From assembly GCA_964567575.1 (NCBI GenBank), contig CAZMMZ010000008.1, positions 9,960 to 50,141 on the forward strand: 40,182 bases of DNA, in the 5' to 3' direction. Origin of the DNA: Candidatus Undinarchaeota archaeon. Its GTDB lineage: Archaea > Undinarchaeota > Undinarchaeia > Undinarchaeales > UBA543. The notes below the pieces were generated by a model. It worked only from the letters and a program-made list of their open reading frames with translations, was not told the DNA's origin and made no database searches. This document shows, one piece after another, positions 33,684-37,020 of the stretch. The translations under genes were made by a program, and so were the position numbers. Numbering within the stretch: position 1 is the stretch's first letter; every line of letters begins with the position of its first letter.

Positions 33684-34067
33684 CTATTCTTTCTTTTTTC
33701 TTTTCTTCCGTTTTCCTTTTACTTTTTGTTGTTTGAAAACTTCAGTTTCGCATTTTTCGCAAGTGATTGTATATGGTTTTTCCATATCAATTTCTCCACC
33801 ACCTGCATGTCCGCAGTCAGGACACTTGTAACCGTATTTCATTAAGGATTCTGCCGATTTCTTAAAAAGAATATATTTTCCAATTCCTCTACTTAGATAT
33901 CCTGATGTAAATTGTCCGCCTTCGCCCATAAAGTCTTGCGCTTCTTGCTCTAAACTTTCTAGTGTAATTTTTGTAGAAGTCGAAGTTTGCTGGGACTCTT
34001 CTTGTCGAGCCCCGGCGTTAATAGTGTCTTGTGAAGTCTCTGCGTTGTTTTCTTGCTCTTCAGTCAT
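33684..34067 (-). CDS. Zn-ribbon protein with acidic N-terminus and Lys-rich tail
   Basis: CPDC...CEKC, ends [13 protein letters not shown]. Start abuts the rpl12 stop. Confidence 0.8.
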   Translation of the reverse strand: MTEEQENNAETSQDTINAGARQEESQQTSTSTKITLESLEQEAQDFMGEGGQFTSGYLSRGIGKYILFKKSAESLMKYGYKCPDCGHAGGGEIDMEKPYTITCEKCETEVFKQQKVKGKRKKRKKKE

Positions 34068-34358
34068 TTATCCGAACAGAGCGCCAAGCCCTGCGGAAGC
34101 TGCTGCAGTATCTTCTTTTTTCTCTTCTTTCTTTTCTTCTTTTGCTTCGCCACCTGCTGCAGGTGCTGCTGCTGGAGCTGCGACTGCAGCTTCAGAGATT
34201 GTCTTCTCTATGTCAACACCGTCAAGTGATGCGCAAACAGCTTTAATCATAGCTGCATCTGACTTCTCGCCAGTAGCGTCAAGAACCTTAGAAAGGTTTG
34301 CTTCATTAATTTCTTTGCCTGCTGAGTTTAACAACATAGCGCCGTATACATATTCCAT
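34068..34358 (-). CDS. rpl12: 50S ribosomal stalk protein P1 (aL12)
   Basis: [10 protein letters not shown], Ala-rich hinge, C-terminal [15 protein letters not shown]. Confidence 0.97.
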
Positions 34359-34441
34359 TTTTTTTAATCCTCCGATAATTATGAGTGCCTATTGTGTAGC
34401 GCGTGGGGTTTATAAGGTTTTTGGGATATAATAAAGTCTGT

Positions 34442-35119
34442 ATGAAAACAGCAATACTTTTCTCTGGAGGGAAGGATTCCACAATGGCATTGTACTGGTG
34501 TCTGCAGAATGATTATACTGTTAAGTATCTTGTTAGTGCTTTTCCTGCAAATCCTGATAGTATGCTTTTCCATACATCAAATATTGATCTTGTTAGATTA
34601 ATTGCAGAGGCAGTTGGGATAGAACTTGTTGAAGTTCATGTTAAATCAACAGAAGATATTGGTGAAAGCAAAGAATTGAAAGATGCGTTGAAAAATTTAG
34701 AAATTGATGCACTTGCAGTTGGTGGGGTTTCTTCAAATTATCAAGGAAAGATTTTTGGGAAAATGGCACAAGAATTAGGTTGCGAATTAATTGCACCTTA
34801 TTGGAATGCGCCTCATGAAGACTTAATTAAAGAGTCGATTGATGCTGGTTTTAAAATACTTTTCACAAGCGTTTCAGCAGATGGTCTTGATAAAAGTTGG
34901 CTTGGCAAAGAATTGAATTCTGAAACTTTTGAAGAACTTAAACAACTTTGCGAAAAATTCAGAATTAATATTGGTGGAGAAGGTGGAGAATATTGCACAA
35001 CTGTTATTGATGGTCCGATTTTCAAAAAGCGAATTAATGTAATTGAATCTGAAAAACAATGGGCTGGATTAAGTGGTAAATATATTATAAAGAAAGCAGA
35101 GCTTGTTGAAAAGAATTAA
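34442..35119 (+). CDS. dph6: Diphthine--ammonia ligase (MJ0570/Dph6 family PP-loop ATPase)
   Basis: LFSGGKDS, SMLFH, GGEGGEYCT.V.DGPIF. ATG 34442. Confidence 0.88.
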   Translation: MKTAILFSGGKDSTMALYWCLQNDYTVKYLVSAFPANPDSMLFHTSNIDLVRLIAEAVGIELVEVHVKSTEDIGESKELKDALKNLEIDALAVGGVSSNYQGKIFGKMAQELGCELIAPYWNAPHEDLIKESIDAGFKILFTSVSADGLDKSWLGKELNSETFEELKQLCEKFRINIGGEGGEYCTTVIDGPIFKKRINVIESEKQWAGLSGKYIIKKAELVEKN

Positions 35120-35650: not shown

Positions 35651-36094
35651 ATGGAAACAAAAACCACAGCAATGGTCGGAATAATTTTCTTAGTTTTAGT
35701 TATTGGGGGTGCTTTAGCACTTTCAACTTTTGGAGTATCTACAGTTGGTCAATATTATAAGAAATCAACTTTCACAGAAGGTACTTGTGAAACTGCGCAT
35801 CTTTATCAAAATGGTGTTTGTCTTCCAAAAGAAACTGGTGAACAAACTTATTTAGATGATAATGGTTGTTGCAGAGCTTGTACGGATATGGCATACAGCG
35901 CAAATGCATGTGGTGATTGTCTTGGTTTAAGTGAAAATTGTCGATGGCAAACTGCAGATGAAATTATAGCTTGTTTTGATACAACAGATGCATTGTTCTT
36001 TGATAACTGTGTAGATTATTGCGAAACTTCTTCTGTTGCAAAAGGAGAAAACTGTTATCATTCAAGCTGTTCTGATCCGATGATTTGTGATTAG
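35651..36094 (+). CDS. Membrane-anchored/secreted Cys-rich protein (14 Cys)
   Basis: N-terminal hydrophobic segment followed by STVGQYY, then a small disulfide-rich domain. Confidence 0.75.
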   Translation: METKTTAMVGIIFLVLVIGGALALSTFGVSTVGQYYKKSTFTEGTCETAHLYQNGVCLPKETGEQTYLDDNGCCRACTDMAYSANACGDCLGLSENCRWQTADEIIACFDTTDALFFDNCVDYCETSSVAKGENCYHSSCSDPMICD

Positions 36095-36129
36095 GTAAAT
36101 TTATAAGCAGGCAGTATCATAATTTTGTT

Positions 36130-36404
36130 GGCACAGCTAGGCTGGGGAATTAGCCCTACCTTGTTACCGCAAACGGGCTTTACGGCGGAGCTGAATGTCT
36201 TAAAGAGGTTTAGTAGCGGAATGTCGTCTTGTGTTTTGGCGTCGAAGCATCGCCCTGTGGGATCGACATTCTTGTGAATCGGGTCAGGCCAGGAATGGAG
36301 CAGCCCTAAGCGAGATTTGTTGATGCTCATAGCCAGCGGTGTGGAGTCATTACGCAAGGTTAAGCGGCATTTTTCTATTAAATCCATTTGAGGATGCTGT
36401 GCTA
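36130..36404 (+). ncRNA. ffs: Signal recognition particle RNA (7S), archaeal-type Alu domain
   Basis: Helix 8 GGG-TCAGG-CCA-GGAA-TGG-AGCAG-CCC (36281-36306). Alu helices 3/4 with AGCCC/GGGCT loop-loop pairing and UGU turn. Helix 1 GGCACAGC/GCTGTGCT. TATA TTTATAAG at 36100-36107, T-run after the 3' end. Confidence 0.93.
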
Positions 36405-36408
36405 CTTT

Positions 36409-37020
36409 TTACAATACTTTCTCCAAATTCTTAAAACTCTTATTCATTGAAAATTTAGTTCCTGGATGTTTTGTTTCTATTTTTTCTAAATTAGATTCAA
36501 TTGCTTTCATTAATGCAGTTTTCACTGGCTTTTTTAATTTAATAAATTCAAACTTATTCAATTTAGCATAAAGCTCAACTTCAGCTTCTGGAATATCTTT
36601 TAAAATCTTCACACTTTCTCTTGTTTTTGATTTTCCTTTAAGAAGATTAAACAAAGTAGTTTTAACAACATCATCTAAAGTTTCTGAAGTAACTAACAAA
36701 CTACCTTTGGTTTTTCTAGATTTAATTGGAATTCCAATTTTGTTTAATATTTTCTTCAAACCAATAGTTTTTCCAGCAAGTGCATACAATTCCAGTGGCA
36801 TTCTTTCTGAAAACTTTTTCAAAAACTGGCAGACCACTATTGATTTTACATCTCCAGAAACTTCAATTGCAATTTTGCCCTTGGGAGCTAATAATTTATT
36901 AAGAGTAATGTTTTTGCGAATTCTATCATTTGTTAATTTAATAAAATGCTTCTTGCACAAGCTCTTCCCAGAATATTCCTGAGTAATTACAGCTGGTTTT
37001 TTACAAAATGTGCAGTTCAT
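36409..37020 (-). CDS. Degenerate TtuA/NcsA (Ctu1/TtcA family) tRNA-thiolase-like protein
   Basis: N-terminal CxxC...LC..HF Zn finger and KHPGTKF retained. PP-loop reads SGDVKS. Central CxxC and C-terminal Zn finger absent. Confidence 0.75.
   Translation of the reverse strand: MNCTFCKKPAVITQEYSGKSLCKKHFIKLTNDRIRKNITLNKLLAPKGKIAIEVSGDVKSIVVCQFLKKFSERMPLELYALAGKTIGLKKILNKIGIPIKSRKTKGSLLVTSETLDDVVKTTLFNLLKGKSKTRESVKILKDIPEAEVELYAKLNKFEFIKLKKPVKTALMKAIESNLEKIETKHPGTKFSMNKSFKNLEKVL

Follow-up and report, generated by a model that had tools for sequence, protein, structure and literature searches.

An Undinarchaeota SRP RNA gene without helix 6, in a genome in which no SRP19 was found

The window analyzed here, a stretch of 40,182 nucleotides from an Undinarchaeota genome, carries an SRP RNA gene that raises the question of whether an archaeal SRP RNA can dispense with helix 6, the binding site of SRP19, and which particle such an RNA would form. 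A 2010 review describes SRP19 in all archaeal groups, coexisting with helix 6, and considers the clamp between helices 6 and 8 to be likely in every SRP RNA of archaea and eukaryotes (PMC2905702). We found no published account of an archaeal SRP RNA without helix 6 or of SRP19 loss in DPANN or other archaea, although subscription journals or supplementary tables may hold one; the main text of the Undinarchaeota paper does not mention SRP.

The locus is a genuine archaeal SRP RNA gene. The Rfam Archaea_SRP model (RF01857) matches it from end to end (model positions 1 to 317) with 122.1 bits against a cut-off of 96.5 and an E value of 1.9e-27, and this is the sole match of the model in the source assembly (G000; 745 kb, 18 contigs, 82% complete). 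A preliminary description of the window had recognized an archaeal SRP RNA of about 275 nt at positions 36130-36404; the identity was right, and the extent given by RF01857 is one nucleotide shorter, ending at 36403. The position of the TTTATAA motif upstream of the gene fits an archaeal TATA box. The coordinates of the RNA, its parts, and the candidate signals are listed in Table 1.

Table 1. Features of the SRP RNA gene, in coordinates of the window
Feature	Position	Strand	Basis
TATA-like box TTTATAA, candidate archaeal promoter	36100-36106	+	Read from sequence; centre lies about 27 nt ahead of the 5' end of the RNA
SRP (7S) RNA gene, variant without helix 6, 274 nt	36130-36403	+	RF01857
Helix 1, 5' strand, with partner 36396-36403; archaeal-type closure of the Alu domain	36130-36137	+	MFE, Rfam structure line, within-phylum covariation
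Helices 2, 3, and 4 of the Alu domain, with the UGUNR motif (TGTTA, 36162-36166)	36139-36194	+	Rfam alignment; helix 3/4 pairs covary
Full-length 5' strand of helix 5, with the invariant GA of GTCGAAGC (36241-36248)	36196-36266	+	Rfam alignment, pair counts, RNAalifold
S-domain hairpin resembling a complete bacterial 4.5S-type RNA	36247-36345	+	RF00169 model 1-97, 61.8 bits, cut-off 40 (contig C8:46206-46304)
Site of the lost helix 6, one base (C36267)	36267	+	40 model positions versus 1 nt in the cmscan alignment
Helix 8, GGAA tetraloop 36292-36295, conserved SRP54-binding motif GGTCAGG...AGCAGCC	36270-36315	+	Rfam alignment, RNAalifold pairs, tetraloop tally
3' strand of helix 5, with the conserved GCGGTGTGGAG block	36317-36394	+	Rfam alignment without insertion; pair counts
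T5 run, candidate archaeal terminator	36406-36410	+	Read from sequence; 3 nt past the RNA 3' end

The neighbors of the gene are the tRNAs Ser-GCU and Val-UAC, a diphthamide synthase, a TtuA-like gene, rubrerythrins, and a membrane-anchored, cysteine-rich ORF; an SRP-related protein was looked for among the adjoining genes, and none was found. The cysteine-rich ORF lies directly upstream of the RNA (35651-36094, +; 147 aa), has an N-terminal membrane anchor and 16 cysteines, and matches no Pfam family. Its product is probably a secreted or surface protein. An antisense ORF of 98 aa (36091-36387, -) inside the RNA gene is almost certainly spurious, and annotation pipelines could mis-call it as a gene.

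The alignment to RF01857 removes exactly helix 6, as the preliminary description had proposed. Model positions 142 to 181, which form 18 bp and a GGAG loop and are intact in canonical relatives (L002 and L010), are represented by C36267 alone, and the short RNAs of the relatives G050, G013, and G001 show the same gap, with 0 to 1 nt at this site. A GNAR-capped helix 6, the SRP19 site that forms an adenosine clamp with helix 8, is not present, and the flanking bases are all assigned to helix 5 by covariation. With helix 6 gone, the clamp cannot form, and its clean excision turns helices 5 and 8 into a single continuous rod. Otherwise the RNA resembles the canonical archaeal 7S RNA, such as that of Methanocaldococcus jannaschii (structures of canonical archaeal SRP are 1LNG and 2V3C; PMC2905702), in helix 1, in Alu helices 2 to 4 with the UGUNR motif, in a helix 5 that has its full length and the internal-loop motif GA / GGAG, and in helix 8 with its GGAA loop and SRP54 site. 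Helix 1 covaries in the phylum alignment (columns 2-10 with 272-280), and the helix-8 sequence GGTCAGGCCAGGAATGGAGCAGCCC matches the consensus in the Rfam alignment, the GNRA loop and the SRP54-binding loops being kept. The genome likewise encodes an archaeal SRP54 and the receptor FtsY, so that the differences from the canonical system are the missing helix 6, with its 18 bp and GNAR loop, and an SRP19 that was not found.

SRP19 was searched for in the source genome with four profiles. Neither Pfam PF01922 nor NCBIfam NF002993 yielded a match, and the same holds for an HMM made from the SRP19 sequences of ten relatives, run unfiltered on all six-frame ORFs (best E = 2), and for an 11-row profile (A2). 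The genome is incomplete (82%), which makes its own lack of a match weak, so the comparative pattern weighs more. Among the 61 genomes sampled, SRP19 was matched in 22 of the 24 with a long SRP RNA (306 to 384 nt) and in 0 of the 33 with a short one (262 to 277 nt); 17 of these 33 reach a completeness of 94% or more, and two consist of one contig each. PF01922 as run misses the Sulfolobus acidocaldarius control, while NF002993 finds the Sulfolobus control, so that a very divergent SRP19 may escape detection, and absence tallies made with Pfam only may hold false negatives. SRP54 was found in 60 of the 61 genomes, including the source genome. For SRP54 and FtsY in the source genome, PF02978 and PF00448 match contig C2 at 33844-34839 (-), and a second PF00448 match lies at 41863-42447 (+). 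The identity of this SRP54 (contig C2, 456 aa, L078:1429-2796:-) is 84% with the protein of MAG UBA543, 47 to 52% with SRP54 from other DPANN-type archaea, 40% with an Asgard SRP54, and 34 to 40% with bacterial Ffh.

We consider it highly probable that the locus provides a tiny marine DPANN archaeon of the Undinarchaeota with a functional SRP RNA from which helix 6 has been excised, in a genome in which no SRP19 was found, with a particle that would consist of SRP54 and RNA only. Such a particle would be SRP19-independent, as the preliminary description predicted. The place of SRP19 might instead have been taken by another protein, not SRP19-like, which attaches to the rod of helices 5 and 8 or to the tip of helix 8, stabilizing the SRP54 site. 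These genomes contain many small ORFs without a family assignment, the 147-aa ORF upstream of the RNA gene being one example, which would leave room for such a protein, although nothing speaks for it directly. The adjoining ORF, however, is cysteine-rich and membrane-anchored and is no RNA binder, the other neighbors encode a diphthamide synthase, a TtuA-like protein, and rubrerythrins, and archaeal SRP54 binds 7S RNA without SRP19 (PMC2905702). A substitute protein therefore appears improbable.

The fold of the RNA was tested by covariation. SRP RNAs were collected from 57 of the 61 related genomes, and 31 of the short ones were aligned with MAFFT, blind to structure, and then folded with RNAalifold, which pairs 36247-36268 with 36317-36342 and continues straight into helix 8. 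The 21 pairs of this region are formed in 91.5% of the alignment cells and show changes on both sides in 18 of 21 cases. Their covariation score is 0.767, compared to 0.15 to 0.20 when the partner strand is slid by 1 to 3 columns, and none of 500 shuffles reached the score of the continuous helix 5. The same fold results from RNAalifold on the phylum's own 14 RNAs alone, with 45 of 64 pairs compensated, and the single-sequence MFE structure of the whole RNA agrees with it. The covariation thus supports a predicted helix 5 that runs without interruption into helix 8, which the preliminary description had arrived at by hand.

The hand-made pairing itself needs correction in places. Two of its three examples, TCTTGTGT/ACGCAAGG and GAATGTCG/CGGCATTT, belong to the fold, whereas the third, GGCGTCGA/TTGATGCT, is mis-registered: in the correct register, TTGATGCTC (36320-36328) is paired to GGGATCGA (36259-36266) and GGCGTC (36238-36243) to GGAGTC (36343-36348). 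Pairing GGCGTCGA with TTGATGCT gave rise to two apparent features, a leftover of 13 to 24 nt at 36246-36269 with a 5-bp stem and a CTGT loop and an insertion of 15 to 24 nt in the 3' strand at 36328-36351. The former is the distal part of helix 5, in the 5' strand, and has strong covariation; the latter stretch fits the Rfam model without any insertion.

The finding that could have overturned the continuous helix 5 had been named in advance, namely, covariation in favor of a long alternative stem between GAATGTCG and CGACATTC (36264-36271), for which GAATGTCG was placed at 36199-36206, while its true place is 36219-36226. This stem, with its GAAG-containing loop, might represent a non-canonical helix 6 bound by a divergent or unassembled SRP19. 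The isolated segment 36219-36271 does fold at -17.3 kcal/mol as a single sequence, and in the 31-RNA alignment the stem is 58% paired, slightly above the background given by a shuffled mean of 52%. However, it excludes the pairs of the continuous helix 5 that are conserved at 91.5% with compensatory changes, it would cost helix 5 about 20 bp, and the whole-molecule MFE prefers the continuous helix. In the RNA of G001, from the same genus, the alternative stem is broken (GGATGTTG versus CGATGTTC), while the helix-5 partner compensates, GAATGTCG/CGGCATTT being replaced by GATGTTG/CAACATT, which leaves no base for a helix 6. The GAAG sequence is part of the GA motif, which the Rfam alignment places in helix 5 for canonical RNAs as well, and the search for SRP19 gave no match in all 33 short-RNA genomes. 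The stem was rejected on its low pairing, its breakage in G001, and its incompatibility with the well-supported pairs, and a bound non-canonical helix 6 is very unlikely. It is hardly credible that the short RNA has arisen by decay of a copy or by faulty assembly, the functional SRP RNA lying in unassembled sequence of a genome that is 82% complete, given that the locus is the only SRP RNA match in the genome, that 33 genomes from many assemblies, closed ones included, have no SRP RNA other than the 262- to 277-nt form, that the compensatory changes indicate selection on the fold, and that the SRP54-binding motif and GGAA loop are intact.

A relaxation of the helix-8 tetraloop after the loss of helix 6 was also considered and was rejected by a tally of the loops, which are GGAA (25), GGGA (2), UGAC (3), and UGGC (1) in the 31 short RNAs and GGAA (16), GGGA (2), and UGAC (1) in the long RNAs.

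In shape, the SRP RNA without helix 6 equals a bacterial type. The model of the Bacillus-type large SRP RNA (scRNA, RF01854) matches over its full length (model 1-256) with 93.1 bits against a cut-off of 60, whereas Methanocaldococcus and Sulfolobus controls stay below the cut-off, in agreement with the earlier view of a Bacillus-type design with an archaeal Alu domain. Both RNAs have an Alu domain, a long helix 5, and helix 8, and both lack helix 6; SRP19 is missing from the bacterial system and was not found here. Unlike the Bacillus-type RNA, the one described here has a helix 1 and an archaeal-type Alu domain, RF01857 scores higher and wins the clan competition, and the partner is an archaeal SRP54, nearest to archaeal proteins. 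Its helix 1, its higher score with the archaeal model, and its archaeal SRP54 partner point to loss from an archaeal ancestor and not to bacterial transfer, and the likeness is most plausibly due to convergence by loss, not to shared descent. The small bacterial SRP RNA (RF00169, 4.5S) is matched by the S-domain hairpin, but this hairpin sits within a 274-nt RNA with an Alu domain, so the whole RNA is not of the small type.

The particle probably comprises SRP54 and an RNA of Bacillus shape and nothing else. The M domain of SRP54 would bind the helix-8 loops directly, and the GGAA tip would serve receptor docking as in bacteria. The Alu domain would still reach the ribosome factor site, so that an archaeal ancestor would have arrived, through loss, at the architecture of the Bacillus-type large SRP RNA. 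Doing without helix 6 and SRP19 may be tolerable because archaeal SRP54 does not need SRP19 to bind 7S RNA (Zwieb and Bhuiyan 2010, PMC2905702) and because SRP19 is dispensable in Haloferax, where its deletion is viable (Yurist et al. 2007, J Bacteriol 189:276, as cited in PMC6098224 and PMC2905702). As far as those citing papers describe it, the Haloferax volcanii deletion strain likewise has an archaeal SRP without SRP19, but it is a laboratory deletion whose RNA keeps helix 6, whereas here both partners are absent in nature and across a phylum. If the SRP of these archaeal phyla has two components and an RNA of Bacillus shape, the SRP core can be stripped down in nature, and archaea without helix 6 offer natural material on what SRP19 and helix 6 contribute in archaea.

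The short RNA is not confined to the source genome. All 14 SRP RNAs detected in 17 Undinarchaeota genomes are short, that of the source genome included, and MAGs of Undinarchaeota, Woesearchaeota, Nanobdellota, and Nanoarchaeia have a short RNA and no SRP19 that could be found. Short RNAs also occur in 14 of 15 genomes of another phylum, whose genomes measure 1.0 to 2.4 Mb; the smallest genomes are thus not the only ones with the trait. The covariance-model scores of the short RNAs are low, three of them falling under the Rfam cut-off. SRP19 is unfit as a universal archaeal marker in estimates of genome completeness.

In the phylum of G053, the genome G115 has an SRP RNA of 309 nt (L202:50-358:+), compared to 267 to 277 nt in the 14 others, which are short. 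The Rfam model could not align the helix 6/8 apex of the G115 RNA and left out 77 nt.

A different combination was found in the phylum of G055, sampled with 16 genomes that are at least 90% complete and 1.0 to 1.3 Mb in size. SRP19 was found in 0 of the 16 with PF01922 and NF041311, and sub-samples were negative with two more profiles, while 14 of the 15 SRP RNAs detected (L024:1501-1809:+ and L185-L198; genomes G055 and G090-G103) are long and have helix 6. Helix 6 carries the GNAR loops GGAG, GUAG, GCAG, and GCAA in this phylum and shows compensatory changes (alignment A3); in G090 (L185:1501-1792:-), it is reduced to a stub of 6 bp. These data suggest that helix 6 can outlast SRP19, perhaps because of the RNA-RNA clamp, and that it is lost at a later step. 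The phylum may be a living intermediate, with SRP19 lost and helix 6 retained, and the member with the 6-bp stub may represent the next step. An assignment of this phylum to the Nanohaloarchaeota was rejected, as its proteins are not acidic. G017, with a long RNA and no SRP19, was also considered as an intermediate lineage and was rejected because SRP19 is present in 13 of the 16 genomes of its phylum; its missing SRP19 is a sporadic miss.

It is conceivable, and we propose it tentatively, that the joint loss of helix 6 and SRP19 is ancient, possibly a single event common to most DPANN phyla, and perhaps stepwise, with SRP19 lost first and helix 6 later. A published phylogeny places the Undinarchaeota between the two main DPANN clusters (PMC7414124). 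If true, an ancient shared loss would be a rare structural marker of DPANN relationships and not a by-product of recent genome shrinkage. The RNA type itself is a discrete character that can be used in the debated phylogeny of DPANN.

Two further observations concern single genomes or small sets. The SRP RNA of G099 (L186:335-665:-) has an insertion of 23 to 29 nt exactly at the GGAA tip of helix 8, which may be an intron-like element or an expansion. Four MAGs of 0.9 to 1.4 Mb titled "uncultured Methanosarcinales archaeon" (L097, L098, L099, and L103) encode an SRP54 that is 48 to 52% identical to the Undinarchaeota protein; the first three, in which an SRP RNA was detected, have the short form, and all four gave no SRP19 match. 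They look DPANN-like, and their Methanosarcinales titles are probably wrong.
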